Below, in pieces: positions 27,001-60,000 of a DNA stretch of 64,000 nucleotides. Under the pieces are notes generated by a model, which had not been told where the DNA came from, did no database searches, and saw only the letters and a program-made list of their open reading frames with translations. Source of the DNA: Candidatus Omnitrophota bacterium (GTDB lineage: Bacteria; Omnitrophota; Gorgyraeia; Velamenicoccales; Velamenicoccaceae); assembly GCA_043819345.1 (NCBI GenBank), contig JBDREX010000009.1:39911-103910 (forward strand). Reading direction: 5' to 3'. Made by a program: the position numbers and the translations under genes. Position 1 is the stretch's first letter, and the number at the start of each line of letters is the position of its first letter.

Positions 27001-30000
27001 TTAACTTTCTCGTATAGGCCCAGTCTGCAGCAGACTGAAAAAGAGCGGACAAACGAATGAAGAATATTTCTATATCAAAACCTCTTAAATAACAAATAAT
27101 ATCTGCCAATCCTACATTTCCATTTTTTTCGTTAAGCGCATACAAGAGGGCTGAATACTCTAAAACCGGATCTTTGTGTGTTAAGCCCACAACGCATACC
27201 CCCTGTTTTTCAGCCGTCTTTTTAAAATGTAAAATTTGCAAACGCAACTGCTGGATTTCCTGACTAAGTTTATTCTGATGAAACGTAATCCGCCTCCATA
27301 GCAAAGAAAGTTCCGACATCTGTGAATCCAGTTGGCTAAAACACGTTAAACATATTTCTTCTTGCTGGCTAAAACCAGCCAATTCCTGCTCTATTCCATT
27401 TAGTATATCCTCTAATTCCTTTACTCGCTGTTGCTGCCCCATAGATGCCAAAAACAACCGAACCTTTTGAATGGCCTCAGCCAACTTTTCCTGATATCCA
27501 TGATACAGCTCAATAGGGTGATTGGAAAAAGCGGCCATTTCAAACAATAACGAATTTTTACCGGCCTTTTGAACTTTGACCAAATCCGAAATCATCAATA
27601 ATGTATTATCTTCCCGCAAACATAGAAGACTGAAAAAACCAATATTTTCCTTTTCAAGAAGACACTCTTTGATCCATCCAAACAATGGAACATGAACACT
27701 TGAAACATTTTTTCTAAGCATTTTTTTAACTAACTGGCTTCGCTGAGCCAGCTCTTCGTCAATTCTTAATAAGCTTTTTTTCTTTTGTGAAATCAATGCC
27801 GACAAAACGGCTATACGTTTTTTCCACAAAAAAAGCTCATTCTTTAAGCGAAGCAAAAAATCTCTTTCGCGAATAAAATCTGCCTTGGTTTTTTCTACAC
27901 TATCCCAAGCCCCTCTTATGGCCTCTTCAACGGGTTTCAAAAGATCCCTTTTATCTTCCAATATCCGTTTTAGGCGGTTCATCCTAAGGACTTCCATTAA
28001 TACCTCCGGGCCAAAATCAGGCAAAATCATCTTTCCATCTTCACGCCCCTTATCCATCAACAAAACTAAAACACCATCCCGATAGCCAGCCCCTGTCGGA
28101 TATTCTTTTCTGGCAAAGACCACTTTCGTCCTCCCGGCAAAATAACGGACAACCACATATGTTCCATCTTGAATCCAGGCTGACCTCACGACAGGGTATG
28201 AGAGGAAAAACTTACCATCGCCATCATACAAGAAACTATCTTCTGCCAGCTGATCCCTGTTGGGTAACTCACACAAAGGGTCGCAACCAAGAAACTCGGC
28301 AATTTGGCGGTCTAAATCAGCATCTTGAGAAATATCAAAAATCAAGTCACGGCCATTTCTATCTGTAATATCTTCACCTTTCTGGTCTTTCATATACCAC
28401 ATAAGACTCGGCGAACCTTTGCAAATCTTTATAGCCACTGAGGCTTTTGGATATTTCCCAACAGTCCTTCGTATACCACATTCGCTCACTAAACCAATTG
28501 AATCTGAAGATGTATATAAAATATAACTTTTCTCCACATCTACATATTCATCCCTCCAATTCAAATATGTGTTAATTAGTTTTTTCTTAGGGTTAAAATT
28601 TTTCACATCCCCTTCCTCTAAAACTTCGTATAATTTACTAATCCTTTTTGACTCCCACTTCAATCCATCACGAGACACTTTAACTTCCGTAAAAAATATC
28701 TTTCCGTCCGGATTACGCTCAATCTTCTGCATGTGACAGAATGAATAATCTTTTCCAAAAACATAATGAGCCCTACCCCCCAGATTCAAAAATCCCAGAT
28801 CCCCCAATGTAAACCACCGTACCTGATGATCCGGCGTTAATAGATGGTCTTTTTCTTTTAAATTCGCCTCAAAAGCGATACCCCTCTTTTGAGAACAGCT
28901 GTAAATAATTGAAAACCTCCTATCCTGTTCCTGCAGTAGATCCGTGCAACGGCTAACAATGCCCTGATCAAATTGAAGAATGACAAAAAGGTAAGGAATA
29001 TCTCCATAATGCATCGTCCACAACCCTTTCTTATTCTGAGGCAACTGGCCGTCTATACCGGGTTTGCCTACTATCTGCAGTCGCATATTCTGCGATAAAC
29101 AGGCAATTGTTGCGCAATGATTCCGCCCTGTTAAAACAGAAAAAGATAAATCACCATTAAAATGGTGGCGGGAGCCTTCTTGCGACATATCCAATGAGCC
29201 GGTTAAAACATCCACAAAAGGGAAAATAAGGCTTTCCCCGGGATTCCTGGCTAAACCGCTCATTGGAAACGCAACACTTTTGTTTTGTATATATTTTTCA
29301 CTAAGCAAGCCCTGAATCGTCCGTCCATAATTGCCAAAAATCTCTGAAGCTTGATTCTGACGCAAGAGTAATAAAACGATAGCCATATGAAAACACCCGC
29401 AAGAAAGAAGAAAATTATTATGAAGACCTTTATCATCAATCAAGGCCTCCTTCAGTGCCTTGGCTGAATTTTCAGGATCAACAGCAAGGACTTCTTCAAC
29501 CAAAGAGCGTTTTTCTGCTTCATCACCTGTCATAAACTCTTTCCATAGCGCAATATTATTTGCCTCAACAGAACTACTCACGTCTGATTCTAAACCTGCT
29601 TTCAATTCCTCATAATTCAGGCAACAAGCCGATCCAAATTTGCCTGTCTTCAATACCTTTTTAGCGCTTCGTATTCTTTCAAGAAAAGATGGATGACCAG
29701 ATCCCCACACTATTTCAAACCAGGACGGTTCTAAAACATTAGTGTCTAAGACAACAAGTTTTTTCATCACTGAAATAAAAGCATGCGCATCGGCAGATAT
29801 AGATAAAGCATATTTATCAGCAGCCCGCTCTCCTTTCCTGCAAACATACTTCTCAAATAGTTCATACAATAACGACACAGGCAAAAACAGAAAACAAAAC
29901 CCTAGTAAAGCCGCATGAGTTGAAAATATTTCTATTTGAAAGATAGGCGGCAACCAGGCTGATCGCAGTAACAAAGAAAAAAGATATAACTGAACCCCAT

Positions 30001-36000: not shown

Positions 36001-39000
36001 AAGAAACAACGCGCCTTTCAAAATCCGCCCTAATCCTACATACAGTACTTTTGCCTTCATGGCTTAACGGAGCCGAATAGTTTTCCATTAATACCACTCT
36101 TTTTGCAAGTTCATTCCTCATCTGTTTTTTAGGCAAAGTAGCCAGGTCCTCATCTGCAAGAATCCGTTTCGTCAACTTAAGGTAACCATCTTGAACCAAG
36201 CCATTCAAAAAAGGCTCCGGCAAATGAGGACACAGTTGCCGAGCCTCATATTGAAAAGTATTGATAGAGGATGAAGAGAGATCGTCAGAAGACAATAGCC
36301 TAATGAAATCGCCCGCGCTCTCAACAATGCCCATAGTAGCTTCATCCCATAATCTATAAGCATGCGGCCTATCATTCTGAAATCTTGAAAACATAGGACC
36401 CTTTAAGGATACAACAGCGCTGGAAACAGCCGGATAATCAATACCTAAACAAATATGCAGCCCACTAGCCGACTCTATGCTTATCACACCTTTTTCAGCC
36501 ATTTGACGAATAGAAGTTGATATCCATCTTCTTAACCATAAGGAAGCGGGCCCTTCTAATTCCATTCTGACTTGAGGTATCTTTAAAGCCAATAAAGCAT
36601 CTATTGTTGAAACAGAAAGACTTTGCGCACCTTCTTCGTCTTGCGATACAAGTATTTCTTTCGCTACGGAAGGAAGATTTTCAACAATAACACGGCGCAG
36701 GTCATTCCCTAAACCCAGATCTCTCTCATAACGACCAACCTTCTTAACAATCCGGCTAACAAGGTAATCCAGCGGATATTGCACAGGCCTGGAATCACTT
36801 TCCTGACGCTCTCTGACAACCCATGGAAACTTTTTGCCCCATTGCCCTGTCCGAAAATCACACGTATCTATCGTCGATGACTCCTTATTTAAACACAAAA
36901 TCCTTAAACTAGCCTCAACAGGATCGTGCCCATTTTGACCCCCAAAAAATAAACCCGCCTTACCAAAAAATTGTATCATTTTTTCATCTATAGGAATCTC
37001 TTCATGCGCCAATCCAAAAGATAACAACTGAAGAGCCTCTGCTATTGGCACATTGTTTTCAAAAATAATAATATAAGGCCTTTTATCCGATGGATCGGGA
37101 CCGATAGATGACACGTAATAACGACCATCGCCAACACCACAAAAATACGCGATAATCTCATTTGTCTTGGCATCTTTTATCCTTTTCATCGGCGCCCAGG
37201 CCACCTTACCATATTTAAGGATATTAAGTTTTTCTACAATAATGTCCGGAGTCTGCATAGGAAGCGTGAGATATCCTTTACGAGTGGCACCAATATCAAT
37301 ACGGTGCACCCGGTCAGGCCTTAAAACCATGGGCTCCCAAAGCGACTCATCTCTAACGGCTAAATTTACTAAAAAGCTATAGAGAAAGACATCCTCTCCG
37401 TATCCAATACGAAACTTATCTTTACCAGCCTTTAACTGCTCTTTTTCATAAATATGGATTAATCCAAAATGATTGTAGAGACGAATTTCATCAATAAAAT
37501 TGACATACAACAAATACTGAGGGACAGGTTCTGCTATCGTGCTTTCATCAAGCAACATTGTAAAAATGCTGCCTTTTGACAGTCTATCTGTTATTTTAAT
37601 CATTTTCTTTTTCAAAACTTCCGCCAGCTTAGTGCCACCTGCGGGAGGTAACCCAAAATAAATACCATCAAGAGATATACTCGTATTCGTTGCTACCTCA
37701 AACCCGCCTCTATGATACGGTTGCTTGCCTGAAATAATTTTTTTAATAAAACGCTTGTCCTGAAAAACCTTCTCTAAGCATCTGTCCGAAAAATTTAAAA
37801 CAGCTCTAAGATTAAGTAAAAATGATTGTCCAACAACCTGGCTTTTAGAATCTCCTTGAGCGACTTGATCAACACAGAAAGAGCTAGAAAACCCATTCGT
37901 AGAATCATACAAAACCACATCGTTATTCTGATAGATAATTAATAAAAAGTTTTTTGTTTTTATGTCAACCAGTATCTTGACTCGCCCGTTAAAAAAATCA
38001 TTTTGCCTCTTATTGATCAAAGATGTAATATCCAGCAATGCGACAAAATCTAAAAGCCTAGTCCCAAAATTAAGATAAACTTTATATCCGCATCCATTTG
38101 TAAACTGAGCCGTAACGCTCCCCTTGCTGACTATTTTTGGAAAAAACTGGCACTTCCTATCCAAGTCTAATACAATTTCTCTGATTTCAGCCAGATCAAA
38201 ACAATCCAAAAGTGTTTCTTTGCCTGGTATAAACACCGGTTTTAAAAAACTGCTGCTCGCCACATCATCTAATTTGGATGAGTTTGCTTGCGCCTGATAG
38301 CTCTGGTCACGCAAATACTTAAATCCACCCATCCCTCTAAGATAAACACAAACCTGGGCGAAAGTAATATCTATCTGTGGAAACATAGAAAGCAAATGTT
38401 CATGCAGCTCCTTGGCTGTCTTAACGTGAGGGTATTGAATAAAAATTTTCTCAAATAGCGCCATCCTGCTTCTAGCCTCCTTCTCCTGCTTAATAGCAAC
38501 CCAGGATGTATGGCGCAATACAAGCGCACGATTAATATGGTGCTTTAAAGAGGCCTGCTTACCAACAAACCCTTTTGCAGAAAACTTTGGATATAAATCC
38601 CATAATGATAATTCTTTAATATTCCCTTGAGCAAAATATTCATCCAGCCATAATCTGGCATATTTTTCAATCTTTTCAGCTTTTCTTTCCAGCCAGCTCC
38701 CCCTGCCCAGTTTATCAACGGCCCTTGATAATCTCGGCAAGTCCCATCGGCCAATTTCAGGGCACAAAAAAGCTAACCGCGCCTGTACTTGCCCTAAAGA
38801 CAAAAAGAAATTCTCTTCAAGCAAGGCATCCAGATCCTGATCATTAATAACGACCCCTCTTTGCCACTTTCTAACTACAACCGGTGAAGATGCCTTAATT
38901 TGAGACAACGTGTACAGCAATTTCACGCGCCATTGATTGAGATATTCCTCAACACTACCACAAACACTCACACCATTGATTCTGGTTTTAAAAGCCCTCT

Positions 39001-42000: not shown

Positions 42001-45000
42001 AACACAATAAAACCTCAGCACTGATATGCCGTCTCTGTAAAAATTCTAATTGTGACCGATAAGATACCATGAGCTCTTCCAAGATATGTGCCACACATGC
42101 TTTTAGCAATTCCACATCATCTTGATTGTTCATATCAACACCTTTTCTCATTGCGATTTTCAACAGCTCTGAATCCGCATAAAAATGAGCAAACTGATGT
42201 ATATCGCTGATTTTTTCACCCGCCTGAACATAAAAGCTTATTAAGAAATCTTTATATGAATTATCTTTTTTTGACTTCTGTAACAAATAATCAAATACGC
42301 TCATATCAAAAACCGGCTGAGTCACCACATAGCTTGTGCCTGAATATATCTCCTGAGCAACCTCATAGCTTACGTGCACTAAAAATTCCGTTTCATCGGG
42401 ATAGGTAAAAACAGCACGTATGTTGTCCCGAGAAATCTCTTGAATAACCCGTAGATCTTTAAAAGCAGGATCATTACAATCTTTCAATTCAATAACAGCG
42501 TTATCCAAAAATTGATAAAAGGCGCCTGCGACAGTTTCCATCAACTTATTCTGTGTTGAAGCCCGGTATACTTTTATCACCCTTTTAGTTCCTATGCTTA
42601 TTAAAAAGACAAAAAGAATAATATCCAACCATATCACCCATTTACGAAAAGTCCGCTTTTCTGACGGCATTTTTTGCTCGGCCTCTTTTAAAGCTGTCTT
42701 CTTTCGCTGCCACGGATTTTTCAACAAAGGTGAAGCTGCCTGCTTTAATCTCTGTGTTTTCAAAACATCCACAAATACTTCAAATTGGTCCTCGCAGGCA
42801 ACAGGCAAATTAATAACACATACACGATGAGAACGCATGATAGAGACAAGCAAGGCTATAACATGGCCGAATCTCTGCTTCATGTTCGCCATCTTCACCT
42901 TTAGCTCTCGCTCCGGAATCGTGATGCCCTCTTTAACAAATTCCTGAAAATAACACGCTGTCTGAATAATACCATTGCCGATATCAATGTCCGTCAGGTC
43001 ATACGTTTTTCCCTTGCTGTTTTCAGCCGGAATCCTCAACTCTCCAAAAGTGATAGAACGCACAATAGCATCTATACTATTACCCCTACTGTCTGCCGAT
43101 ATATTTCTCTTTAAATATGCATAAAACTGCTCACTCTTAGCCGCCATATTTATCCAATCCTTATGTTCCATCAAAGTCAGAATCTCTCTGCCGCTTGAAA
43201 AAATCAGTCGCGCCAACCCTCTTAAGCTCGCCATATGTTTTTTCAGCGAAATTTCTTTTCTCTGATTTGGTTCCATATTAAAAACCTCTTCTTCATAGAA
43301 AGCATAATAGATTGTCCTCAAAAATATCAAGGCATCTCTTACGTCAGCACACATGTTTTCCGAACTATTTTTATTAGACAAAAGCCTGCTCAAAAATTCA
43401 TGCACGAGAAAACTTCCACATGGATGACCCGCGATATGGCTTTCCAAAAATGCGTACCTCATACTCGCAGCCTGCAACATATCAGACTTAAATAGTTGCA
43501 GGACAGCTCTCTTAACGTCATCCTCGCTTAATCTTAACGCCTCATATATCCCATTTAAAACGGCTAAATTTTGCGCATATAACAAATCATAAACCCTCAA
43601 ACGCAATTGGCCTCCGTCACATCCAAACACATAATTCATATAGCGGCTGGAAAGCAATGGCCGTAAAAAATTGTTCTTTATCTGCATCTTCAGAATCGTT
43701 TCCGGAGAAAAATGCGGATTTTTTTCATGAAACCAATAATGCTGTTTAATAAAAACCATCAAATCATGTGACATATCGACACTGATATCTGAAGTCTTGA
43801 GCACATCAAGCATCTTTTGTTCTATGAAAGAGTGGTTTTGGCTCTGGGTAAAATACTCATCCAACAAACAACCATCCAGGCATTTTAATGCCTTAAACAA
43901 GTTAATTAATCTCCGCGCCACGGCCTGGCTGCCTCTTACAGTAGAAGCAAATCGCAGTAAAAGTGCCGGGGTTAATGAATAACTGCTACCAGAAGAATAG
44001 TCACCATCATGGCAACCGGTAACACAGGAGGAGGAAATGATCTTTTCATCGGCCGCCCCATAAACGCTAGAAAAAACAGGCGTTGAAGCAACATCGAATA
44101 ACCTGCCACGGTAGGTTCGAATGCTACGACACAGGGCAGCCGATGAAGAAGCTATATTATCCAAGAAAGAATCTCTGTCATTAATACCCTTCTTTTCACA
44201 AACAAAACTCTTGCCTATCGCAAAAGAGCCTTCCTTGATCTCTTTTTCGCGATTAGCATCAATAATCGTATGATCCTCCCTTACATCAAGATAATTCCAA
44301 AAAATTATATCTATACAAAGGCCGGCGAAAAACGAAAAACAAAACCATATTTTAGCGACGCAAAAAAACATTTTAAAGAATTCAAAACCTAAAAAGATCT
44401 TCACAATAGGCAGGATATATACCGCAAACGTCATACCAACTGAAAAGACTAGAAATGGGGCCAACAACAAAGAAGCCACACAAATGTTAGGATTATGAAA
44501 AAGATTAATAAACCATCCATCCCTTATTAACTGATTCAATGAGAATAATTCCGGTGTATATATTTCTTCATACCACTTAAGCCCCCAACGAACGCCTTTA
44601 GCCTGTTCCATTGGTTTTTTAACCGCGTGATAACCAAATTTTTCATCATACCTCATACGAGACGATTGTTTTTCAAGAGGGATACCACATGTATAGGTAA
44701 GAAAAAGATCCTTTCTGTCCCGTAATAAAATTTCTCGTGTCCACCCCAAAAGATCCTCTTGTGTCACTTTTCTATCCTGCGCACACCACCAACTCCAACC
44801 ACCATGGCCGACGACCGCAATATTACGCACGCCAACATCCTGCAATTTTTCTTTCAACTGATCACTTGTTGCCCCATTTATTATGTCTAACCGATATCCT
44901 TTTAACCACCAAATCGCCCGCATAATTGTATAAAACTCCATCTCCCAAATTTCCCCGATAAGGCTTTCATCATTAGTCATCAAAACAGTTAAAACATTTT

Positions 45001-48000
45001 TTCGGGCAAATAAACTTTTTAAGAACTTCTTAAGAAAAACACCTATGGTACTCGAGGCACCACAATGGCTCTCTTCCGGCGGATTCGTATACAACGGTTC
45101 AGACGGCCAACGCGCAATCTCTGCCTGTAGTTTTTTATCCAACTTTTCAAAAAAGACTTTCCAGCGCCGAGGAGCTGTTAAGTAGATCTCGTTATATTTT
45201 TCCCAATCCACCTTTTGAAAATAGCCGTCATAAATCTCATTCAATACTCTTACTTTTTCTTCATCCTTAAGCTTCATAAAAGAATCATAGGCCTTGTCTT
45301 TACCATATTTTTTAATAATGCCGCGATTCGCCCATTCAAAAAGGCTCGGTTCAACAAACTCAAAATAATGACCCATATTACACATCAGTAATTCATCATT
45401 ATGTTTGTTTACCATATTTCGCACAATCGGCCTTGCGATAAAAAACAAAGTCCCACATAGAATGACAATAGTAATCATGATTTTAACCAAAGAATTTCCA
45501 CGGCAAGGCCTCAATGACTTAATAAGCTGATGTCTTGATAAGGAGGAGGAAGCCAAGAAGGCGGCCGCCCCGGAAGCATCAAAGAATAATGATGCCAAAA
45601 GACTGATATCGAATAACCTGCCACGGTAGGTTCGATAAGCCTTCAGAGCCGCCGCCTTGTAAGGATTTTTGATATAATTGATTAAATGATTACTAAAAAG
45701 GTGAGAGAAACAAACAAAAAAACCTACTGGAATCATTTTTACAACAGCCTGGCTTCGTGCCAAACCAAAAAAACCAATCAACTGTGCTATATAAATATTT
45801 GTATTCAAAAATAGAAAGGCGTTGAGAACAGAAGATGCGGCCAGATACTTTTTCAAAGCAATAATCTCCGGAAGCGCAATAATACCCTGCCTATCAACCA
45901 TTCTAGATAAGGGCCTATACGCAATACTCTTTAAACTATGTATAACCTCTATCATCTGCCTACGGGCATGGCCGATAGCCCTCCTTAAATCCCCCACTCT
46001 CTCCTCACTCAAAGGCTGCGAACTCAAATGAAACTCGTCAATCTCTAGTACAATATTGAGGATGTTATTCATATAATTTGCTATGGTTGACAAACAAATC
46101 CCATAAATGGCCAATTGGGGTTTAGCACCTGTTAATCTGACAGTTAGACTTTGCTTCAAGGCATCCAAAGCCAATCTCATCTCGTCCATCTCCCCCATAT
46201 TAATTGTGCCCGAAGAAAAATACTCATCAAGGAAAAATGCATATTGGCTCAAAAGATGTAAAAATGCATTGATGCGAAAATCCCTGTTCCCAAAATATCT
46301 GATAATATAATAAGCGGCCTCGTCTTTTTCATTCTGTGTTAACTCATGGTCCTCACTCTGCCGGCTCTCTGAAGACTCAACCATTTGCTCATCCGGCACA
46401 TTCCTAGCTCCTGTGTTAACCCCCTGTATGTCCCTAGTTTCAGCCACCAACATCTTGCCCTGGCATTCAAATACCTGAAGTTTCTCAATAGCTTCCAGGA
46501 CAATTTCGGAAAGATCAAAAGAATCAATCAGACTCCCACCCACCCTAACTTCAACAGCACTTCCTTTGATTGAAATTCCTTTTAAGAAGAATATGATTTC
46601 AGTACAACTTTTTTCTATATCTTCAATAACTGTGTCCGAACCTGATTTTAAACTCGTTATATATAAAAATAAAACTTCAATCCTCTCAGACAAACGATAC
46701 CCTTTTAATGCCCTGCGCCCTGCCCCTTTTATAACGAGAGCATAAGGATCATTGGATATATTAAGCTCAGCTATAAAATCTTCCACATGCTGCTGCATCT
46801 CCCTAACAAGGCTTTGAGAATATGTTTGAGACAATACCTTTATGCTTGCAGAAATATAAACTATGAGCTGTTCAAGCTCAGTCGCTGTGGAACTAGCGAC
46901 AAATTTCCACTCTTTTTTTTCGGCTGCTCTCAAGAAAGCGCTTTCCCGATAATTAATAAAAAACAAATCAGATGGAATAAAACCTTTTTGCGCAGAAGAC
47001 GAGAAGGCTTCAATCAATCCCTGACGATAGTTGCTTTCCCTAACACAACCTTGGTGAATCGTTTCACCTAAAACCCATTTTCTGGCAAGATAAAAAGCAC
47101 CATAAAACTTTTCTGCTTTCACGGTATCTCTTTTTTTATAAAGGTTCTGCAACTTAGTATAGAACTCACTCAACTCTATACTCGTATCTGCAGAAAAAAT
47201 AATTTCAGCAATTTTGCTTTTAGCATAAACTGTTTTGACACCGACAACCGCGTCAATAAACCCTTCATCCTCATTGCAAAATAATGCAAGAGAATTACAA
47301 AGACCCCTTTGCTCGCATAAAAAATTAAGATACACGCTCAAAGGATTATGAGTTGTCGCTTCACAAAGAACATGGTGGATTGCCTGGCCGTGTCCAAAAA
47401 GAATTGGGCCCTCATATAATTCCATGGCCTCTATCTGAACGTTTGAGTAATCACCTATTCTCAATTCATGCAAATTATTTGTTTCAACCAACACAACTTT
47501 TTCATAAGGCGTAAAAGAAACAATGCCGTCATAAAAATCATCGGAACCAAGGTTATAGTGGCCACCAGCCGGTAACGTCTCAATCCACATATGCTCATCC
47601 GATGAGATGAACTTAACAATCTGATGTAATTTCGTTATCCAGGGCGTAGATGTATGAATAAACCTGTTCCATCTGGCCAAGAAGTTTTCATGATGCGAGG
47701 GACTACTGGCATCAGGCCAATCACAAGAAGTAGAAGCATGTCTTTTCCCAGAGGAACGAATCCTGCGTTTCGCATAGTCAAAATCTATAACCTGTGCAGA
47801 TTGTCCCGTGAGCCCATATCTTTTAAAGGCTATATATAAAAAGCCTGCTACCATAACAGGTACATTCACGGTTAGCATCCCATGAAGGAATAAACCAACT
47901 CCTACCCAGAAATAATGCCGCGTCATTTTCAAAATTTGATTCTTGGAAATCACTAAACCCGGATAAATAGAACACATGATATAAGAAAAGAGTGTCATTA

Positions 48001-51000
48001 ACATTATTAAAAAGATACCTTCCATTATCGTGCGATAGCAAATAAACAATCCCGTTTCCGTAATACGAGAAATAGGCTCTATAAACATCTTGTCTAGACA
48101 AATTCCATACATAACCCCTTTAAGAAAAGAAGCTGCGTGAGCCAATCTCAAACGCAAAGAAGGTTGAAATTCTAAAACCTGCGCGCATGCATTAGCATGC
48201 TTAATAAGAGATGAAGACACCATGTTTTCCAAAGAAGGCAAGAGATGCATCTCCTGTGCCAAGCGCACGCTTGCCACCATCGCCAGAAAATGCCTGTCTA
48301 AATCAAATGCCTTAGACATAAGATGAGCCCCGTAAGAGGAATGAAACTCCGGAGCATCAACATTGTAATCATGACAAACAAAACAGGAAATATGTTGAAA
48401 TGGAAAGACCAGGCTTAAGAGCTGAAACTGTTTATATCTGCGCAACCACAAACCATTATCCATGCCTTTGTGATGGCGCAATAACCCATGCCGATTAATG
48501 ATTTCCTTTGAACCAATATATCTCTCTAAAACACCTTCTTCCAGAAAGCTCCACTTATCCTCCAAAACACTATCCTGAATCCGTAAGACTTCTTCAAAAT
48601 AACTCCGTTGAGCGCCATAAAAAATAGAGACGATAAGCCTCATCCTCTTTAAAACATCTCCCTCTGATACACTATCCCATTGTTTTCGCGTACCTTCAGA
48701 CAAATAATCTCTTATAACTGCATTCGCGCTATCAAAAGATGGCCACATGAAACGACAGGAAAAAGAAAATCTCTCTCTCAAGACAACCTGAAAAACTCTC
48801 ATCATCATGATATATGAAATAAACTCCCTCTTGCGGCACAAATTTTCAACCGCCGCTATGATCTTATCGTCAATAAGATCATAGCGGGATAAAATTAAAT
48901 ATATTTGCCCTATTTTTCTGTCAATATGTTCACACAAACTCTCCAAAGAAGAATACCCTTGCTTAACACAGGATTGAATCTCATGAAATCCTTTTATGTC
49001 TTTTTGCTGAAACAAACAATCCAGCTCCCAAAAAATAGAAGAATATTCCCGCATACAACTTTCTTTTATCCCCGGAACTTTCTGATAATGACGGCTCAAC
49101 TCTCTTCTCAGCTTCAAGCATGATTTCTTCAAATACAACCCTTCCTCATAACGCCTGACAAAAAACCATGCCTTATCAATTAATTCTTTAGCTCCAGAGG
49201 CTAAAATCTGTGCCTCACCCAAATTCCTTTCATTTCTCTTGCAATAATCCCGCTGAAACTTCTTCATCTCTTCTACAAGCGCAATAATCTCTTCTGGAAA
49301 AATATCAAAACTGAAAAATAAGGCATCCTGTTGTCTCTGAACACGGCTATCTCTCGCTAAACTAAAACCCATGCGTTCCATATTTATCATAGCACGGCGC
49401 AAAGGTGTAATCCGAATTGATGAAACATCACGAACAATGCTGTCTATAATAGAAAAGGCATGTTTTTTAATATAGGTAATGATTAGATCCATCTGTTTAA
49501 AGGTATCATTGATTAAAAAAGGCAACTGCGGTTCACCTTCCATAGCGCTGGAAACGGTTTTATCCAATTTGGCAATAAGATTTTCCATTGTACGCGAAAT
49601 ATCACTCCGCATGAGATCCGGACGAGCACTATATATTAAAGATTGCACAGCCTCCCAATCGCGGTAGTAACAGTTTTTTAATACTTTATCGGCATCATAG
49701 TCATCAAAGCTTTCCAATAAGCGCCATATGGATTCAAACACGCCAAAACCAAATAACCTTTCTGTTTGATGAATATAAGGAATAAGCCTAGATTGCAACT
49801 GTGCAAACGACAAAGACGCACGCAAAGCAAGGCCCTGATCACCAAATAAATCCATAACACGCTGTTGCACCAAAAACGGATTTCTTAAATACATAAACTC
49901 CCGTTTCGCATTCCTTATTAAAAAGATATACTTTAAACGACGCTGTAAGGTCGTCATATCCTCATGTAAAACAATGCGCTCAAGCCCATATAGCGAATAA
50001 ACCAACCGCACCGGAACATCTCTTTTTCTAGAAAAAATATTCAGGAACTCCTGAGAAGAAACAGTCGCGTAAGAAAAAGTTAACTGTGTTTTTTGACTAG
50101 AAAATAAACATATCTCACCCTCATTCCACAGTCGCTCCACATCATGCGGAGCTGCCGGCAAAGTTTGGAGCATCTTTAAAGACATCTCCTTTACAGCAGA
50201 CGAAGAAACACTCTCCAGCAACTCAGCAAACTCATTCTGGAGGTCATCAATAGTTTTAATCTGATTTTGCTTCACACGTTCATCAGGAAACCACTGGCCT
50301 AACCCCTCCGTAATGATCTGCTGATTTCCATCAAGCTTTATATGTTCTCTCTCTAATGGATCCCATGGTTCAAGCTTATATTCATACCGTTTTCCTAATT
50401 GAATCTTCTGCCAATTTAAAACAAAAACCTGTTTTCCTTGTGCATATGCCTGCCTGGCTGTATCAACGGTCGCGCTATAACGAGCACACTCAGCAATAAC
50501 CAATATCCTTGATAATCCACTGATAATTCTGTCACGGGCAAAATGCCTTAAAAGACAACTCTTTCTATCATAGGCAAAATCATCATATTCAGATAAAAAA
50601 CAACCATCAAATTGTAAAATCCCCTGTTCAATAAATTTGCGTTCCGGATGGCACGTATTAGAAAATGCACCCTGAGGATCAGACGAAAAACCATCCCCTA
50701 AAACAGAAACAACCCTTCCCCGTTCATCCAAAGCGCCAATCTCAGAAGCCAACTCACTGCCAAAATCATGCCCTGTGACCAATGTCCAGCTATGCATTGC
50801 AGCTGTTTGTGCCAAAGCCTGAACAACACGAAATGTAGCCAAGGTGATGCGCGTCGCACCTGAAAAGTTAACCGTATGCAAATTCCGTAAAACACCCGCG
50901 TTACCTAAATAATAAAGCTCCTGCGGCAACTGAAAATCTTTTTTCCTATACTTTTGCTCATGCCTGGAAATCATCCTTTTAATCTCCTTGCACTTAAAGA

Positions 51001-54000
51001 AGCGCATGGTATCCAGATAATATTGATCAACATAATCCATCGTTTCCGCGACAGAAGGAAATTCTCTCAGTTTAATCTTTCCCATATTAATAGGTGAAGA
51101 CGCCTTGTCTAGCAGGGCTTTAAACGCAGCCTGCAAGCGAGGAATTGTTTCAATGATGGGCTGACGCGCTGTAAAAGCCGGAAACCACTCGGCCAAACCT
51201 TCGCGGACAATCTGAAGGCCACCGTCTTGCTTAATACTCTCTTTCTGTGTCGGGCTATAAATTTCAATACGACCTCCTATCTCCATTCCTAGGCGAACCC
51301 TCTCCCAATTCAAAGCAAACACTTTCTTGCCTTGCATATAAGCCTGGCGTACCGTATCAACTGTTGCGCTATTCTCAGCAGCTTCTACAATCATCAATAC
51401 TTTTGAAAAACCGCTCAACATTCTGTCACGATCAAGATGCCTTATAATCCGCTCATCTTTTGATAGCGCATCCTGCTTATACTCTGAAACAAAACAACCA
51501 CCAAATTGAAGTATCAATTCTTCAAAAAATCCCCGATCAGGAAGCAAGATTCTTGGCAAGACATGCTTATTTCGTATCTTCAGCGCATCACCCAATACAG
51601 CAATAATGCGCCCCTTCTGACTCAACGCCCCTAGCTCTGAAGCCAATTCACTACCCCAAACATGCCCTGTCACCAAGGTCCAATCATACGCGGCGGCCGC
51701 TTGAGCTAGAGCATAAATAATACGTGTTCCGGAACAAGACAAATTTGTCGTCCCTGAAAAATTTATAGTCTTAACAAAAGATAAAGCATTAGAATTACCG
51801 TAATAATAGATTTTTTCAGGTAACTGCACATCCTTAATTTCATAGGGCCGCCCGGAACGAAATTTTAACCGTTCATACCCTTTTTCTTCATATTCTTTGA
51901 TCAAAGACGGAAATTTTTCTTGCACATAACTGGCAACATCACGCAAATAACTAAAATTCCGTAAATTCATCCTACCCTTAGATACCGAAGAAGAAGCACC
52001 AGAAACACCGGGAGAAAATCTCACATGGCGAAAATCAGGCCCAAGACCGAGGAAAAATTCATTAAGTTTTTTAGCAGATGCCTTCAGATCAATCTTACCC
52101 TCTTCTATTAATTGCTTAATCATCTTATGAGATGTAGTTGGCTTCCACCACTGGTGGTTAAGAAAATCCAACGACTGATTCTTTTTTAAAGCTACAACAA
52201 TACGTATTTTCCAGTATTTAATATAATCAAAATACTCATTCAAGACGCGGCGTAAAAAATCATAATTATACTCCTGATTATACTGAAGTAAGCCCAAATC
52301 ATTGAGCACAACAATCCTTTCAGGTATCAATTCTAACTTTAACGATGCCTCTGTATAATACCGCTTGTAACCAAAAAGATTTTCTTCTCTTAACCAACCG
52401 GATGTGAGTTGGTTAAGCTTTTCCCAGGCATCAGGCGGCATATTATCCTTATAAAATACTAGGTCAATCAGTTCGCCTCGCATCTCAACATTCTCATGCT
52501 GATTCACCCTGCCTATCTGCTTACCCATACGTTTTAACACCGGTTGAGGAATACCCTGCTGTATAAAAAATGCGTATCCGTAAACCTGCTCATACTCCAA
52601 ATATCCTAAATCATTCAATTCTGCTATCTTATCAACATCAACAGCCAACCATAAAAAACCGCTGCCATAAATTCGCCCATAACCATAGGGATGTGTTTTT
52701 CCAGACCAAAAAGAAGTTTCCTCAACCAACCCTTTCCAAGCTTCAAGCGGCATATCCTGCTTATAAAAACGCAGGTCTAATAAAGCACGATGCGCACGAA
52801 CTTCTTCATACAGTTTTTTTACGGATTCCTGAATCGGCGGCTCCGGCCTTATTGAAACAAGTGCTTCTGTCTTCCCTCTAACAGGCTTCCATTGATCCTT
52901 TAAAAACAAATAAACATATATTTCCTGGTTTACCTCTTTAGGTAAACAAACTATATTCCCTGGCCTAATCTGTGGGATACCTTTTCTGTTCAAATGGATT
53001 TGAGGATTAACCGTTAAAATTTCTCTCCACCGTGATCCAAGATCATAGGAATGATCTTTCGCTGTTCTTGTATTTTGAAAAATATATTTTGACAGATTCC
53101 ATAAAGTATCTCCTGCCTCAATACGACAGGTAACCACTTGTTTATTGCTAGGTTCATAGGCATAACGCGACATGTCTGTGAAAGGGACAGCGGCTGAAAC
53201 AGAAGCAGGCAGATAAAGTAAAACAAAAAGAAGGATTGTAATAAAGAAAAACGCGATTCTCAAGCGCCCATTACAATTGTTTTGTTTTAAAACAAGAGAG
53301 CCTGATATGCTTGATGATACATCCTTATCATCGTTATTTTCAGATGAAAACATGGCCCTAGCCAGATGAGAAAATCCAACCATACAAAAAGCATGTAATA
53401 CAGCAGCCATCATGACAAAATAATTTCTATCAAGAACCCCATATAATAAAATACCAAAACTCATAAAATAATACGTCAGCGAATCTTCATACATATTTCT
53501 AAAAAAGCAGCTACACAAAGAGTTAAAACTCTTTGTGATAACATAGCTATAAATAAGAAAAACCGCTATTATAATTAGCCTATGTGTAGAGGATCCTTGT
53601 TTATAGATATTCTCAAAAATTTGAAAAGGATTATTTATAAAGTTATCTATTGTGCATCCAATCCCAAAACCGATAAAAGCAGATGTAAAATAACATGCCT
53701 CCTGGAAAACTATGTTAAAAAGAAAAGTAAGCTTTTTAAAAAGAGGCGAGCTCGCGCTCAATTCTTTCTGGCCTAATAGCTCTTTTGATATTTGTTCAAT
53801 CGCCTTAAAAATATCGCGTTCACGAACAAGAATACTTGCAAAGCGCCACAAATCACTTGAACCTGAATCAATACCACTTGCTTCTAAGGCAATACCGGCC
53901 AAATAATACCCAAAAACATAGGGCCCTTGAGCCACAAAAGTTTTGTCCCTATCAAAATATAATTTTTCCCCGTCCAATCCTTCTCCGATAAACAGATTTA

Positions 54001-57000
54001 TCTGAATTAAATATGAGCGATCTCCTGTATTAACAAACTCACGCACTATCTTCCTACCAAAAGACACATACTCTTCTTCTTCCGCGCTCAGATCTGAAAG
54101 TTCAATTTTTCGGATTGCTTCAACAAAAGTTGCGCATGGATTTTCCTTGCCCTCATAACCCAAAATGGGCTCAAGCACATGAAAAGCTTCGTGACAGGCA
54201 AGCGCCATATAGTCCTTATCAAAAAATTCTGCTCTTAAATAAACAGCTTTACCAGGAAATGTAACAGCCTGATATTTCGCATATTGCAAAGGCACCATAA
54301 AAAGAACAATGGCTGTTACAACACCTGCCGTAGCAGCAATAGAATTATCCCACACCGTTCCTTTCCGCCTCTCCAAAGTACAAATAAAGATAGCCCCTGA
54401 CAGAACAACAAATAGTCCGACACCTACAACAGTTTTACAAACAGTATGCATAAAAGAATACATTAACAAATGCCAACCATCCAAAGCAAAAACAGGGCAA
54501 CAAGAGACCTGAGAGAATTTTTCTATAGCGGAAAACTCCTTCGTCAATAAATATAACTCACGATAATAAAGACACAACTGGCGCTGTGACAACGGATGTC
54601 TCAGAAAATAAAAGACAGCGATGGGGATAGAAATAATAGCAACATAGATTAAAACTGGCGTGATATTTTTAAGCATTGATTTCAGAAATCTGCCTATAGG
54701 ACTTGAAGAAGGGAGTAATTCCAGCATTTCCGCCAACTTAACGCAAGCAACCATATACCTAAAACTTTCATCCAAGTCAAACCGGCCGGCCAGCTGTCTA
54801 GCCACAAACGCATAATCTAAATCAAAAGAATCCCAGCCATATCTTGTCTTAAAAAGATTATCGCGACTGAGAGATAAATCCGCCGGAAAAGCCAATTTTA
54901 AAAGCTTAACCTGTTGATATAACTTTACATAAGACAGTTCTGAAAAATGCCTGGCTTGCTCTAATTCTATATTTCTTTCTTTCTCAAGGCCCTCCAAAGC
55001 AAATACATACCCTGTCTTAACAATCCGAAAACACTGCAAAAGAACCTCATGAAAAATATCCATAAGCAGGTTGGCCTGTAAAACACGCTGATTCCCCGAA
55101 GACTTTTCAAAAATATCCTGCACATCAGATGACAACTGTAAACGGCCATGATCCGTCAAATACTCTTTAATAGTACGAGAAATATCCGCATAACTTGACA
55201 TTTCTTCAAAAGTATCAAAAAGCACAGCAAATCTGTTGATAACAACCTGAAACATTCTCATCCGCATCAATTCAATCAAAAGATCAATATCCCTGATTTT
55301 AGAAATCATATTGGTCTCAGTCAGGCAACCTCTCTCTCCATAATTAGATATTAAAACCATCACCTCCGAACGAATCAAAATAGCACGAGCCTTAAAGCGG
55401 ATTAAAAATTCCTCCTGTTGGGCCATGATGCGGACAAATCTTTCAAAAGGCATACGGCCATTAGTATTTTCTAATAGAGATAGCACTCTAAAGAAATGCC
55501 TCACGTATCCTCGCAAACCATTCACATAAGAAGCAACAGACAAAAGCTCCAACAGCTTAACCTCTTCATCTGATGTTATTGGCCGAGGAGCAAAACCTCT
55601 ATTTCTTGGATAACTCCTCATCAACTGATAAGCATAATCGATTAAAGCTACAACATCAGCATCTTCTGCTACTTGCCGTCTTTGTGCTATGCTGCGATTA
55701 AAGCCGCTAATCTTATAGGTCAAAGATCTGACTTTTTCAAGCGTTTCTTCAACCAGCGGCTGCTCAAACCCGGCAACAATCGATCTTGTTTCTTTTAAAG
55801 AATTAAAACCTGGTACTTCACCATTAATCTCAAATTTCAATACTTCACAAGCCTGTTCCAGCTCATGAGTCGCAATCATTAACTCTCGCATTAACTCTGA
55901 GCAAGAAGGCCTATTGCGAACAACTCTATTTTTCTCAATAACATAAAGAAGGTCTGCTTTTAACCTACCTGAGAAAACCATATCTAAAATAGGAAATACT
56001 TCACAGAGATTACGCCAATAGGCTTTTTGTAAACGCAGAGGGCTTGAAAATTCAGTCGCCCCCACCACACAAGACAACTCTTGCACGAAACAGCTTCCCT
56101 CAAACATATGTAAATATCCCTTAAGTCCTGAATCCAACTTTCTGGCTTCACTTACAGGAGAACTCAAAGGATCAATTTCATCTAAAAACAAAGGCAAATA
56201 TGGCCTTTGATCTTTATCAAAACGGCCGCGGTTTTTTTTCTTGGCGCCAACAACAGACCAGCGCCGCAGGCAAGGCAATGACGGAAACGCAGCATTTTCT
56301 ATAAGTTTCATCGCCTCTTCATCTGTAAACTCAACTGTTTCAGCCGTCTCTTTAACCGCGGGAGACAGCGTCTGTAATTCCACCTTAAATATTCCCCGCC
56401 CTAAATCATTAATACGAACATCAAACAATTCACCTCCAAGATCATTGATGATCTTCGCGCCTCTCCCCCTCACTCTGCCCGGAGTCGTGTTTGTTGATAA
56501 ACCAGGTGTGATCAAAATATTGGCAAGATCTTCCTTAGAACCTTCGAAATAACAAAGATTCGATGTTTTAATCAAAAGTTGCCTACCGAACAAAGAAATA
56601 TCCAGCACCACTTCATTCTTTGCTTCATTAAATAAGAATCCTCCCTCTGCAAGCCTTTCTTCTATCTTTCGTCTCTGCTCATCCGCATTCTTGATTCTAT
56701 TGACAAGAATCAAATAGATCTGCCCAGCAACGATAAAAGGAATCTTTATTTCTCCAACCTTATCGGCTGTCACATCCCGATACTCATAAATATAATCTTT
56801 GACTTTCCTAATAGATCCAACACCGACAAGATGAAGAATATGCCTCAGCTTAAAAGATCCCTGTAACATCGTCGTCTCAGGTTTGAATCGAACAATATAA
56901 TAATGCCGCAAAGACACAAACAGCCAATACATCAAAAACACTCTACCCGTCAAAGAAAGCTCTTTATCGCGATTATCAACAGTTTCAAGAAAATCTCGTT

Positions 57001-60000
57001 CTCTATAATTCCCCATCATGTCTTTAATATCCTTGAGAACAGCTTTGAGATTAGGATTTTTCGGATCAACATTATAAAGAGTCAAAAGATATAGTATTCT
57101 GGCTCTCACGTCATGCTCAAAAGCATCCGTTACACAACCTGCTTCAACCATATCCAACACCTGCACTTCTTCTTCTCTAATAACTTCTGCAACAACTGGC
57201 AGTTCCCAAGCATAATACTCATCCCTTAAACTAACCAGAACTGAAACCAACCTCTCTAAAAATTTTGCAATATCGGCCAAATATTTTTCAAAATTTTCTT
57301 GCGATTGCTCAAGTTTTTTTTGCCTTAAAACACATACCCAACTAGCAATTCTTTCAGGCAACCCATACTTATAACAAAGAGTGTCATAAACAACGCCTCG
57401 CATAATAATAGGAGCGGCCTGTCGTTTTAGATTAGAAATAGACACATCAAAAGCGTCCGGAGAAACATCCCAGGACAAAACCTTAAACATATCCACAAGT
57501 TTCTCTATCCAACGCTTCCAATAATAAAGCTGTGCCCTTAAATGAAACCAGTCTTGCCCTAAAATATCGGCTCGGCCCAACAATACGTCATCGAGATTTT
57601 TCAAATACTGCAGCTCGGCCTTCGCCACATCCAGATGATTGCGAAGATCCACCGTATCTAAATGGGTTTGAGATACCAAGCAATACAAAAGCTCGCCTAT
57701 TTTCTTATCAAGTGAAAGCTCAGAACTAAGAAAACCCGCCAAACGCTTCTGGCTCAAAACAAGAGTTTGCGAAAGTTTCAACAAACGTTCAATCTCTAAG
57801 CGGTATTGCGATGGATTAAGAAGAATTTTTTCTTCAAGCGACTGAATGGTGTTAGATAACATATCAACCCATCTCTCTAGCGCCACAATCTCATCACGAA
57901 TCTCATCCGGGCTTAACGGACTTGAAACCGACATAATTTCTTCTAAAATAAAAAGATAAGGATAGCTAAGATTCTTTGAATAAATTCTTACAACTGAAGC
58001 ATTGGTCTTGGATAAGTTTTGATGAATTGCTTTGATTGTTTTCGTGTTTGCTATATCCAACCACCCGCCCGCGATATTAACATAGCAATGTTCTAAATCT
58101 AAATGCAGTTTACACCCTTGCCCAAAAATTCTGACTTCTGAAAAAACCTCTTGTTTTTGATACAGACGAATTAAATCAATCATGGTAATAAAACCGCCCA
58201 CGGATTGAACTGTTTGCGCGATCTTCTCTTTTGTTGCTTGCTTCTTTAGAGGCAACCCACTGTTATAAGCATTAGCAACGCCTTCTACAGCACTGTTCCA
58301 CACATATAATGTTGCCATAGCGCGTGAATATATGCTTTGCTCTACTTCCAACGTATCATCTTGATAGAGCGCAACGCCAATTAAATGCGGTTTATTCAAC
58401 ACAACGCTCTTATGTAGGGCTAAGTATTGAGAATTGCCTTTCAGATCATCTACCGCCAAAGGCGAAGAAAAACGACAAGACACTCTATCCAAAAACTTGC
58501 GCTGCAGCAAAAATTCAGTCGCCCCCACCACACAAGGCTTGCCCTGCACGGCACAACTCAAATCGGATAACCTGCCACGGTAGGTCCGAATGATTTTAGG
58601 GGCGACTGTATTACTAAGATTATTATTTTCAGCGAAAGCGGCTGGAATAAAGAAAGCGGATAAAGCACTGGATGTCTTATAAAAAATACTCGTTATTCCA
58701 TCATACCCACCCGCTCTCGGCACTAATTTACCACCAAAACCAGCTCTTGTTTCAAGTTCTTCCTGTGTCATGTATCCCAGATGACGCGTTAAAGCACTGG
58801 ATGCAAGTGTATTCTCTGCATCCGAAAGGTAATATTGCTGCAGGCGACTTGGCTTTTTAGCTTCATTCGGAATAGGCTTTAAGCCGATTTTCAGAAAAAA
58901 TAATATATTGATGCGTAATGTGTTTAGCTTATCTTTTAAAAACTGATAATCCTTTAGCGGACAGATAACATAAGGATTAAGCCAAATAAGAGGCATAATC
59001 ACAGCCTTGCAATAAGGCTTGTAAAGATAAACCCTCAAATTGCCATCTTTATCTTCGGCAATAGATTCAACGCGCACAAGCTCTTTTTCAATGATTTTCT
59101 TCTTGTTTTTATTATGTTTCTCAAAGAAATCGATGTCCCCCTGATAGAAACGAAGAATCTCATTACCCGGATAATGCCTGACGATAAACTCAGCTAGGCC
59201 TATCATAAACCATAACTCTATAAAACTAAAAATCATGCTAAGCCCAATATAACCGGCAGAGAGCCAAGCTAGAACCTCTAAGCCATTTTCAGCCAACACA
59301 CAAACAGCACAAGTCAAATATAACAATTTAAATGTCATAACCACAAAGCTTATGAGCTGATTCACGGAAAGAGTGCAACTGATAGCCTTAGGCAAATTGT
59401 TATTGGCGATGGTGACCTGTTTAAGATGTCGCTTACGAAATCCCTTAAAAGAAATGGGCGAAGAAAAATGATCTTTTGTGTGGTGCAATTGATAATAACT
59501 CTCACCGGCATACAAAGCAGCTTTAACCCGGTCTTTAAGTGCCCTCATTGCTTCCAATCGATTTGTTTTATTGCGTTTATTCATCATTCTTCTAAACACC
59601 TTCCAAGACGCCTCAAATGCGACATCACAAGAAATAAGATCTAAATCGTCAAGCGATAGCTCAAGAACACGATCAATATTTTTAAAAATACGAAGCCCAA
59701 AAACAATAGCTAATGACTCTACAAATTCAGGATAACGGGAAATTTCATAAGCACCTGTCAAAGCCACTCTCAAAGACATCTCTTCATTGCTAGTGATAAT
59801 TTTCACAAATTCCTTCATGATAAAACCATGTCTGGAAGAATAAAGCACCTTGGGAACATCTCTAATAACAAAGGTTCTTAAAGAAGAATTCTCCGAGCTG
59901 TCACCTTGCGGATAGCCCCAAGAAAAAACAAACTGTTTCGTCTGTTGTAGGGCATAAGGCAATTGTTCTCTTAATATCTCTATATAATGGACACTTAAAC

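Follow-up and report, generated by a model that had tools for sequence, protein, structure and literature searches.

A candidate cis-acting structured RNA element at module junctions of a giant Omnitrophota gene

Stabiliser hairpins of operons, REP sequences included, are barriers to 3'-to-5' decay and determine the relative expression of the upstream units, and the hallmarks of REP are a 5' GTAG head and a linked RAYT gene. The put sequences of phage HK022 and the EAR of the Bacillus eps operons are cis-acting RNAs of processive antitermination. In polymorphic toxins, the VENN motif of CdiA and the PxxxxDPxGL motif of Rhs precede downstream sequence that is mosaic among strains. Rickettsia palindromic elements (RPEs) are repeated, hairpin-forming sequences of about 100-150 nt, located in frame within ORFs and translated as passenger peptides (PMC10969869), features that they share with the elements described here. 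The Correia and ERIC repeats give rise to transcribed hairpins, which are RNase III/RNase E processing sites and alter the mRNA level (PMC10969869).

The DNA analysed here, referred to as the window, is a 64-kb stretch from an Omnitrophota bacterium. Its minus strand holds a single stop-free frame of 21,333 codons that is open at both window ends. Minus frame 0 contains no stop and the other five frames contain 1031-2077, and a codon-usage score prefers the giant frame in 1062 of 1063 segments. All Pfam matches (DprA twice, TPR, M48 peptidase, GlpX-like, Fic and the LMW phosphatase LMWPc) lie in this frame, which also encodes 40 hydrophobic segments. The window is a fragment of a multi-domain giant ORF, the gene itself exceeding 64 kb. 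As a stop-free ORF of tens of kb, tiled with many unrelated Pfam domains and with transmembrane segments, it fits the class of giant multi-enzyme ORFs of Omnitrophota and PVC bacteria (bioRxiv 10.64898/2026.06.07.730766). Giant bacterial genes, a recent discovery, reach 147,000 codons, and the survey that described them leaves open whether the giant transcript or protein is one working piece or is cut smaller (bioRxiv 10.1101/2023.11.21.568195). Neither the region around the islands (aa 1600-2800) nor the translated hairpin array had a match among 5.8 billion proteins, a database from which the products of such giant frames appear to be absent. Terminator and promoter scans of the window gave totals at chance level.

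An earlier note on this sequence had drawn attention to two perfectly conserved nucleotide islands within the frame, island A (28 nt; two identical copies and a third with two mismatches) and island B (27 nt; two identical copies), which lie 25 nt apart at 58.5 kb and there encode the peptide RTYRGRLSDLSCAVQGKPCVVGATEF. These observations hold (Table 1). The two islands are the sole exact repeats of at least 20 nt in the window, none of 100 shuffles reproduced the repeat of island A and none of 100 that of island B, and no additional copy was found in the window with up to 8 mismatches. The GC-richness described for the islands is likewise seen in the elements that contain them (0.52-0.54, against about 0.40 for the window). 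The flanks, however, are not wholly dissimilar as had been thought: the copies have a common architecture of about 95 nt, with a second short block, GGGGC(G), at a fixed distance, and over a 44-nt stretch copies AB and B1 differ at 8 positions. Nor is the proposed closeness to transmembrane segments beyond chance: the nearest hydrophobic segment is about 190 aa away from both AB and B1, and 37% of random positions come as near to one.

Folding the sequence around the islands, as the earlier note had advised, predicts that they are parts of a three-way-junction RNA element of about 95 nt, of which the window has three full copies, at 44.1, 45.6 and 58.5 kb, and a decayed one at 56.05 kb. The closing stem, P1, has a GCCCC/GGGGC core within otherwise variable sequence. 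Hairpin P2 is topped by an invariant 19-nt sequence, ACCUACCGUGGCAGGUUAU, which lies within island A, and hairpin P3 is variable in sequence; island B corresponds to the 3' half of P3 together with the 3' strand of P1. In copy AB, P1 is formed by CAGUCGCCCCU/GGGGGCGACUG, P2 bears the invariant apex, and P3 reads GCCGUGCAGGG-CAAG-CCUUGUGUGGU, with five G-U pairs. Copy B1 has lost the P2 apex along with the P1 5' strand but retains P3 and the P1 3' strand. Five type-1 copies, folded independently, yield the common junction with MFE values of -44 to -55 kcal/mol (z -4.0 to -7.0), and of all 100-nt windows in the 64 kb, those of AB and A2 are the most and second most stable. A covariance-model scan of the window found no element copies beyond the known four, and no pairing of the apex with P3 or P1 as a pseudoknot is conserved among the copies. 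The earlier note had held that its view would fail if the islands were the cores of longer repeats. In form they are, but the longer repeat is an RNA structure and not an ordinary protein repeat.

Table 1. Positions of the host frame, the predicted RNA elements and neighbouring features in the window
Feature	Position	Strand	Basis
Host giant multi-domain ORF	1-64000	-	stop count, Pfam, codon-usage score
Copy A1, full three-way junction, 18-bp P1; island A at 44093-44120	44045-44148	-	MFE -47.9, z -6.13; 67.9 bits
SSSL motif, 3 codons past A2 end	45539-45550	-	motif search
Copy A2, full three-way junction; island A at 45608-45635	45560-45657	-	MFE -46.4, z -5.47; 82.4 bits
SSPL motif, immediately past B1	56036-56047	-	motif search
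Copy B1, decayed; island B at 56047-56073	56047-56140	-	model match 56055-56140, 11.7 bits, E about 2 (weak)
SSPL motif, 14 codons past AB end	58457-58468	-	motif search
Island B in AB: P3 3' half, P1 3' strand, U-rich tail	58510-58536	-	exact repeat, folding
Copy AB, full three-way junction	58514-58609	-	MFE -44.4 kcal/mol, z -4.27; model R1 98.9 bits
Island A in AB: P2 top and 4-5 stem pairs	58562-58589	-	19-nt invariant core 58567-58585
Block upstream of AB	58610-58779	-	common to L001 only; 74% identity over 260 nt including element

Outside the window, the 19-nt core is identical in four further metagenomic lineages (GC 43-58%). Exact matches occur at two loci of a Planctomycetia-labelled MAG with 43% GC and in two metagenome contigs with 53% and 58% GC, in ORFs that are otherwise unrelated; the further copies were catalogued as loci L001-L004 and L006-L008. 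Genome and metagenome collections were scanned with exact core patterns, so that the invariance of the core is partly a product of the search; the resulting set comprises about ten independent copies from four to five lineages, all recovered through the exact core match. The stems of these copies covary. In the lower stem of P2, eight of nine pairs change on both sides, and 87.5% of cells are paired as compared with 24-53% when the partner is slid. For the whole junction the corresponding values are 84% and 37-48%, with 14 pairs that change on both sides, a number reached in none of 500 shuffles. Within the window, the two mismatches that set island A of AB apart from the other copies form a compensating pair (TCGAA/TTCGA to TCGGA/TCCGA), at the cost of an F-to-S change.

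Taken together, the invariance of the core across genomes, the covariation of the stems and the compensating mismatches of AB support selection at the RNA level for island A, one of the explanations offered previously, and purifying selection on the RNA would account for its identity. The sequence of island B is not conserved in L001, where the corresponding region differs from the window with compensating changes. For the perfect identity of island B, micro gene conversion, which had also been put forward, or a recent duplication is the best reading, and the identity of the copies at 56.05 and 58.5 kb probably stems from such an event, superimposed on the helix constraint.

The element works on the sense strand. 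Every copy is in sense orientation to its stop-free frame, in nine of nine copies the fold of the sense strand has greater stability than that of the antisense strand, with 38 G-U pairs in total, and the inner P2 stem comprises 58 Watson-Crick, seven G-U and no A-C pairs. A signal on the DNA or the opposite strand, either a single-stranded hairpin for a recombinase or transposase (REP/RAYT- or attC-like) or an antisense small RNA, is accordingly improbable: although the plus-strand apex can form a 6-bp helix that is capped by a CACG loop and includes one G-U pair, and single-copy plus-strand folds likewise have low z-scores, such a signal sits poorly with the better sense fold of the whole element and with the G-U and A-C counts of the variable stems. 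Moreover, the element sequences contain no visible attC R''/R' sites, their location is not extragenic, and the plus strand shows no long ORF and no excess of promoters.

The core translates as RTYRGRL in the window and in L001 and L002, and this common frame, which includes all three island A copies of the window, is what speaks for a reading in which RTYRGRL[F/S]D and CVVGATEF serve as functional peptide motifs, with codon constraint behind the identical synonymous sites. That reading is refuted because the core changes frame between loci, and we leave it next to no probability: L003 and L004 translate the same 19 nt as PTVAGY, so that identical nucleotides do not stand for a conserved 9-aa peptide. 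In these two loci the RTYRGRL frame contains six to seven stops, each element type being open solely in its own reading frame. The sole differences between copies compensate in the RNA yet alter the amino acid, mismatches between AB and L001 are spread evenly over the codon positions (18:20:19), and neither L001 nor L002 conserves CVVGATEF. The giant frame crosses the element under one visible constraint, the absence of stop codons. The block upstream of AB may form an additional fold, as judged from two sequences only.

Three of the four window copies end 0-14 codons upstream of a recurrent peptide motif, SS[PS][LIV], a placement expected for 3.3% of random positions, and L001 and L002 show the same arrangement of element and motif. 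The motif marks module boundaries, and the element lies in the linker just upstream. Four of the roughly 37 module boundaries in the window carry an element, all of them between 44 and 58.6 kb. In both available comparisons (AB with L001, and L003 with L004), similarity between genomes ends at the 3' end of the element. This recalls the VENN and Rhs motifs, likewise short conserved stretches at which the downstream sequence turns mosaic; those motifs, however, are conserved as protein, whereas the conservation seen here is that of an RNA structure and is independent of frame.

The abrupt end of similarity would also be expected if the islands were portable homology patches at module boundaries that favour recombination or gene conversion, thereby shuffling modules of giant genes, their hairpins being incidental or stalling replication. 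Island B is identical in two copies with diverged 5' parts and a sharp boundary, all copies of one gene lie in one frame, so that exchange would preserve it, and 27-28 nt of perfect identity is close to the shortest length reported to allow RecA-dependent exchange in E. coli. We nevertheless consider this explanation rather unlikely, as it leaves unaccounted for the covarying stems, the strand-specific G-U pairs and the invariance of the apex among genomes with 40-58% GC, the sequence of island B is not conserved between genomes, and recombination may follow from the elements without being their function.

Copy number varies at one orthologous site, where L005 has no hairpin, L003 two and L004 three. 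In the L003 and L004 arrays the whole unit of 126-129 nt is conserved without spacers, and the arrays directly follow the stop codon of an embedded small gene. Its 87-aa product (AlphaFold pLDDT 66), a candidate RNA-binding partner, has no Pfam match, no fold match at E below 0.9 and no homologue in the window. A frameshift into the small ORF at an A-run of L004 was considered and dropped, the run not being conserved in L003 and L005. CRISPR arrays were likewise dismissed, given that the window copies are 1.5-13 kb apart and that the L003 and L004 arrays have no spacers. Dispensability at some sites (L005 lacks the array, B1 the apex) weighs against a functional element, as does its presence at only four of the module boundaries of the window, and variation in copy number and mosaic flanks fit a selfish repeat too.

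A selfish palindromic repeat of the RPE or MITE type, spreading inside giant genes and from one to another and surviving only where the frame stays open, with the core as target of a mobilising enzyme and no role for the host, is the alternative that we take most seriously, though we think it doubtful. Several copies occur in unrelated flanks (in the window and in L001-L004 and L006-L008), all in frame within stop-free coding sequence, the orthologous site holds none, two or three, B1 is decayed, each type is open only in its own frame, and in-frame palindromic insertions are known from Rickettsia (PMC10969869). Conserved terminal inverted repeats, however, are absent, the P1 ends differing among copies and covarying, and comparison of the empty site in L005 with the filled sites in L003 and L004 reveals no target-site duplication; both features belong to the Correia and ERIC repeats, which are MITEs, and the likeness to these ends with the repeated, transcribed hairpins, processing being known for Correia and ERIC only. 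RPE families encode a peptide conserved in one frame and are spread over many unrelated genes, whereas the present core is read in two frames (RTYRGRL and PTVAGY). Unlike RPEs, the elements have strand-specific, G-U-containing covarying stems and an apex invariant across distant genomes, and all copies reside in giant stop-free frames near module boundaries. The stems are kept paired through G-U wobbles on one strand, which implies continued selection on the RNA at each copy. Copy number is low, with exact core matches in a single genome among 185,579 species representatives (two matches, both within stop-free frames), placement just ahead of SS[PS][LIV] is consistent, and no transposase was seen within the little flanking DNA read.

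Searches for known families returned no counterpart. With Rfam 15, cmscan at E values up to 10 (positions 43000-60000 and 58400-58700, and L003) gave no match at the elements and only weak chance matches elsewhere or on the opposite strand; ARAGORN predicted no tRNA or tmRNA, viral contigs, plasmids and phages contained no element match, and a literature search for the core sequence found nothing. By eye, the apex recalls RfaH ops, the repeats of type I-F CRISPR, and helix 45 or the 530 loop of 16S rRNA, but these likenesses were partial, misoriented or permuted and were treated as chance. A UUUU(U) run follows P1 by 2-3 nt in AB, B1 and L002 and is lacking in A1, A2 and L001; a scan with the terminator consensus flags no element copy. 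No slippery heptamer for -1 frameshifting (X XXY YYZ) was found within 30 nt upstream in four of five copies, L001 alone having A AAA AAT at -16.

Among functional RNAs, the intercistronic stabiliser hairpins and REP/BIME sequences, such as that of malE-malF, come close in being very stable, sometimes tandem, in sense orientation and placed between coding units. They are, however, extragenic and untranslated, whereas the present elements are intragenic and crossed by an open frame, and they are not three-way junctions with an invariant apex. With put and EAR the elements share the form of compact multi-hairpin RNAs that lie in cis on the sense transcript of long transcription units, and a gene longer than 64 kb plausibly needs help of the antitermination type. 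The present copies differ in lying deep inside the gene and in being unevenly spread, and they match no Rfam family, whichever of these RNAs Rfam holds.

These data are best read as pointing to a new cis-acting structured mRNA element located at module junctions. We favour, with some reserve, the view that the islands represent the most constrained portions of a family of structured RNAs carried in the mRNAs of giant multi-module genes. The invariant apex would then be the contact site of a hypothetical conserved trans-acting factor, protein or RNA, and the stable fold would act on the giant transcript at the module junctions. By analogy with the stabiliser hairpins of operons, its likeliest role would be that of a barrier or of a processing-and-stability signal; alternatively, it may pause the ribosome between modules. 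Against a processing role, cutting a stop-free mRNA would yield costly non-stop messages. A more elaborate scheme of RNA punctuation would amount to a new mode of gene expression, in which modules comparable to those of an operon share one stop-free frame and a dedicated factor binds the 19-nt apex at junctions and cleaves or protects the transcript, or stops and frees the ribosome, to give separate products, with SS[PS][LIV] and the embedded small gene as parts of the same system; it strikes us as speculative and on balance unlikely.

The element may bear on how giant genes are expressed, and it occurs in giant genes of other uncultured bacteria. It provides testable landmarks within such a gene, namely a folded RNA element at junctions, with a covariance model that can be used on all giant genes, and a peptide motif at module boundaries, together with evidence for selection that keeps the giant frame open across both an RNA structure and an out-of-frame small gene. 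If the elements are selfish repeats, they would represent the second clear case, after Rickettsia, of in-frame palindromes inside genes. If they are sites of processing, pausing or protection, they would reveal how the cell handles messages of tens to hundreds of kb.

The minus strand of the window is open in frame 0 from end to end, with no stop in 21,333 codons, compared with 1031-2077 stops in each of the other five frames. This giant frame runs off both window ends (1-64000, minus strand), and the codon-usage score prefers it nearly everywhere. A conventional ORF listing returned nothing longer than 150 aa, because the entire window is one open frame. Its domains (two DprA, TPR repeats, an M48 peptidase with a membrane N-domain, GlpX-like, Fic and low-molecular-weight phosphatase) are mutually unrelated, and for a 1200-aa stretch a search of 5.8 billion proteins turned up no homologue. 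The frame matches the 'multi-enzyme' giant ORF class described for Omnitrophota and found in other PVC phyla (bioRxiv 10.1101/2023.11.21.568195, 10.64898/2026.06.07.730766).

A pattern search of the window bore out the positions and match counts of the two repeats in the earlier note. Island A (28 nt; plus-strand sequence ATCGAATAACCTGCCACGGTAGGTTCGA) occurs exactly at 44093 and 45608 and with two mismatches at 58562, and island B (27 nt) exactly at 56047 and 58510. The 25-nt gap separating them at 58.5 kb and the peptides quoted for them are also correct; their closeness to membrane segments, as stated in the note, does not exceed chance. Zero copies of either island are expected in shuffled sequence. 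They are the only exact repeats of at least 20 nt across the whole window, in which no further weaker copies within 8 mismatches were found.

Alignment of the copies with their flanks revealed a second common block, GGGGC(G), at a constant distance after island A. When folded separately, each of five full copies (AB, A1 and A2 of the window and one each from L001 and L002, two loci of a Planctomycetia-labelled MAG) adopted the same three-way junction, with minimum free energies of -44 to -55 kcal/mol and z-scores of -4.0 to -7.0. The junction consists of a closing stem P1, a hairpin P2 topped by island A, and a variable hairpin P3; island B supplies P1 with its 3' strand and P3 with its 3' half. 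No 100-nt windows in the 64 kb fold more stably than those of AB and A2, which lie more than 5 sd below the mean. The decayed copy B1, at 56.05 kb, has kept P3 and the P1 3' strand and has lost the P2 apex. The identity of island A reflects selection. For island B, whose two identical copies are 2.5 kb apart, a recent duplication or gene conversion accounts better for the identity; other genomes do not conserve the sequence, and its edge with the diverged 5' half is sharp. An anti-Shine-Dalgarno-like run, TTCCTCCTCCT, follows both A1 and A2. Three other unusually stable minus-strand folds fall outside the element family, and one of them (54270-54390) overlaps a weak chance match to a miRNA model.

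Coordinates of the element copies and associated features (aa, residues of the giant frame)
Feature	Sequence	Coordinates	Strand	Remark
Full copy AB	window	58514-58609	-	three-way junction by folding
Full copy A1	window	44045-44148	-	three-way junction by folding
Full copy A2	window	45560-45657	-	three-way junction by folding
Anti-Shine-Dalgarno-like runs	window	44020-44045; 45530-45555		after A1; after A2
Other stable folds	window	54270-54390; 38690-38815; 29170-29295	-	z -4.3; -2.1; -2.7
190-nt block	window; L001	58610-58779; 2185-2356		
LysM-like module	window; L002	52920-53126; 2176-2382		
456-nt tandem duplication	L002	803-1600		
Example SS[PS][LIV] sites	window	58457-58468; 56036-56047; 51089-51100; 51983-51994	-	last two at aa 4300; aa 4002
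Two DprA units	window	50200-51994		
Met-plus-membrane-anchor modules	window	63415-63769; 45127-45475		aa 77-195; aa 6175-6291
87-aa gene	L003-L008	L004 1146-1409 (minus); L003 173-436; L005 624-887; L006 529-792; L007 699-962; L008 243-506		
Hairpin array site	L005; L003; L004	885-997; 436-860; 740-1148		0; 2; 3 units
Region upstream of 87-aa gene	L003; L004	1-170; 1410-1580		

When 185,579 species-representative genomes were scanned for exact matches to the 19-nt core at the P2 apex, ACCUACCGUGGCAGGUUAU, it turned up in one MAG, labelled as uncultured Planctomycetia (GC 43%), where it lies on two contigs; both 8-kb loci are wholly stop-free in one frame. A metagenome scan returned two contigs with GC contents of 53% and 58%. 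They carry tandem copies spaced 126-129 nt apart, three in L004 and two in L003, within stop-free frames of which one spans at least 4277 codons. In each unit on these contigs a long P2 hairpin precedes another long hairpin, and the latter contains CUCCUCCUCC. Over the ~100 kb of related DNA compared, the relatives' giant frames have hardly any similarity to the window outside the element, the exceptions being a 190-nt block and a LysM-like module. The block, upstream of AB and also in L001, is ~70% identical with mismatches even over codon positions, and a prediction from two sequences only suggests that it may hold an additional RNA domain. The LysM-like module (RIEAGDTLWNLS...) has 45% aa and 72% nt identity with its counterpart in the Planctomycetia-labelled MAG, whose giant frame also holds a tandem duplication of 87% identity.

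The core is identical in 10 of 10 copies, an apparent invariance inflated by the collection of copies through exact match to it. The stem beside it varies yet stays paired (tcgg/ccga, tcga/tcga, cttcagg/cttgagg, ccttaag/cttaagg, cttcaga/tctgaag). In the P2 stem, 8 of 9 pairs are altered on both sides and 87.5% of cells pair, against 24-53% with slid partners; for the whole junction the values are 84% and 37-48%, with 14 double-changed pairs, a number attained in 0 of 500 shuffles. Such covariation would go unexplained if the element were a recombination patch, a reading that we find improbable even though both comparisons between genomes place a breakpoint at the 3' end of the element. The two mismatches noted for the 58.5-kb island A are present and constitute a single compensating stem pair, which changes the encoded F to S. 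In L003 and L004 the core is translated as PTVAGY, and the RTYRGRL frame contains 6-7 stops. With the core read in a second frame and a compensating pair that alters the amino acid, the peptide-motif reading is refuted. AB and L001 have diverged to the same extent at all three codon positions, and for each element type the frame being read is the only open one.

The inner P2 stem comprises 58 Watson-Crick pairs, 7 G-U and no A-C, while P3 of AB has five G-U pairs where a higher-GC relative has G-C. The sense fold is the more stable in 9 of 9 copies, and all copies are sense relative to the open frame. Together, these biases point to the mRNA rather than to DNA or an antisense transcript as the carrier of the signal; the DNA-level or antisense reading is weak, as G-U pairs and folding favour the sense strand.

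The giant protein carries the motif SS[PS][LIV] at 37 sites in the window, about one per 580 aa, and SSP[LIV] is observed 22 times against ~0.7 expected. Both TCN and AGY codons encode the serines, so the motif is selected at the protein level. Edges of internal duplications coincide with it: for the two DprA units it falls at aa 4002 and 4300, for a further pair at aa 3098 and 5261. The motif is thus a candidate for a boundary between modules or a site where the giant protein is cleaved. Of the four window elements, three end 0-14 codons ahead of such a site (random position, 3.3%), and SSSPL and VSSSL come just after the element in L001 and L002. This placement puts the elements in inter-module linkers. 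The element is an RNA three-way junction that is conserved, very stable and on the sense strand, has an invariant apex and sits at module junctions of giant ORFs.

Among the modules themselves, the two tandem DprA units are 44% identical, as are two paralogous Met-plus-membrane-anchor modules, the second of which begins right after A2.

In L003, L004 and four related contigs (L005-L008), an 87-aa gene lies ahead of the hairpin arrays, out of frame inside the giant frame; it has a Shine-Dalgarno sequence, an ATG and a TAA of its own. Its protein has no Pfam match and no fold match. Substitutions among homologues concentrate on its third codon positions, and the giant frame is open through the gene in every homologue; under synonymous randomisation of the gene it stays open just 1.3-1.6% of the time in each. 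The stretch looks like a selected dual use of sequence, with selection keeping the giant frame open. The giant frame therefore tolerates stretches set by something else if they are stop-free, and we read the elements as tolerated likewise, their sequence set otherwise and no stop permitted. The ~230 nt upstream of the gene are ~97% identical between L003 and L004 and the gene ~80%, indicating extra constraint.

The site after the gene holds 0, 2 or 3 hairpin units of 126-129 nt, multiples of 3; the assemblies of the short contigs L006-L008 end inside the array. This varying copy number at one site, the decay of one copy and the mosaic flanks would suit a selfish in-frame palindrome resembling RPE. 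We regard that origin as possible but doubtful, given that the element has neither terminal repeats nor target duplications and that strand-specific wobble pairs and consistent placement would be left unexplained.

Searches of the element against Rfam, tRNA, viral, plasmid and phage sequences gave no match, and a literature search returned no paper containing the core sequence. The two giant-gene papers (bioRxiv 10.1101/2023.11.21.568195, 10.64898/2026.06.07.730766) mention neither hairpins or RNA structure nor SS[PS][LIV], and a check of each for terms on stop codons, cleavage sites or linkers turned up no description of internal punctuation. We rate the setting as new for a structured cis-RNA or in-frame palindrome; the element's nearest functional analogues are intercistronic stabiliser hairpins. 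The presence of such an element in giant genes bears on whether their transcripts or proteins work as one piece or are cut into smaller units. The apex may be the recognition site for a conserved factor. On the giant message the fold might serve as a barrier to decay or a site of processing, might make ribosomes pause between modules, or might do both.
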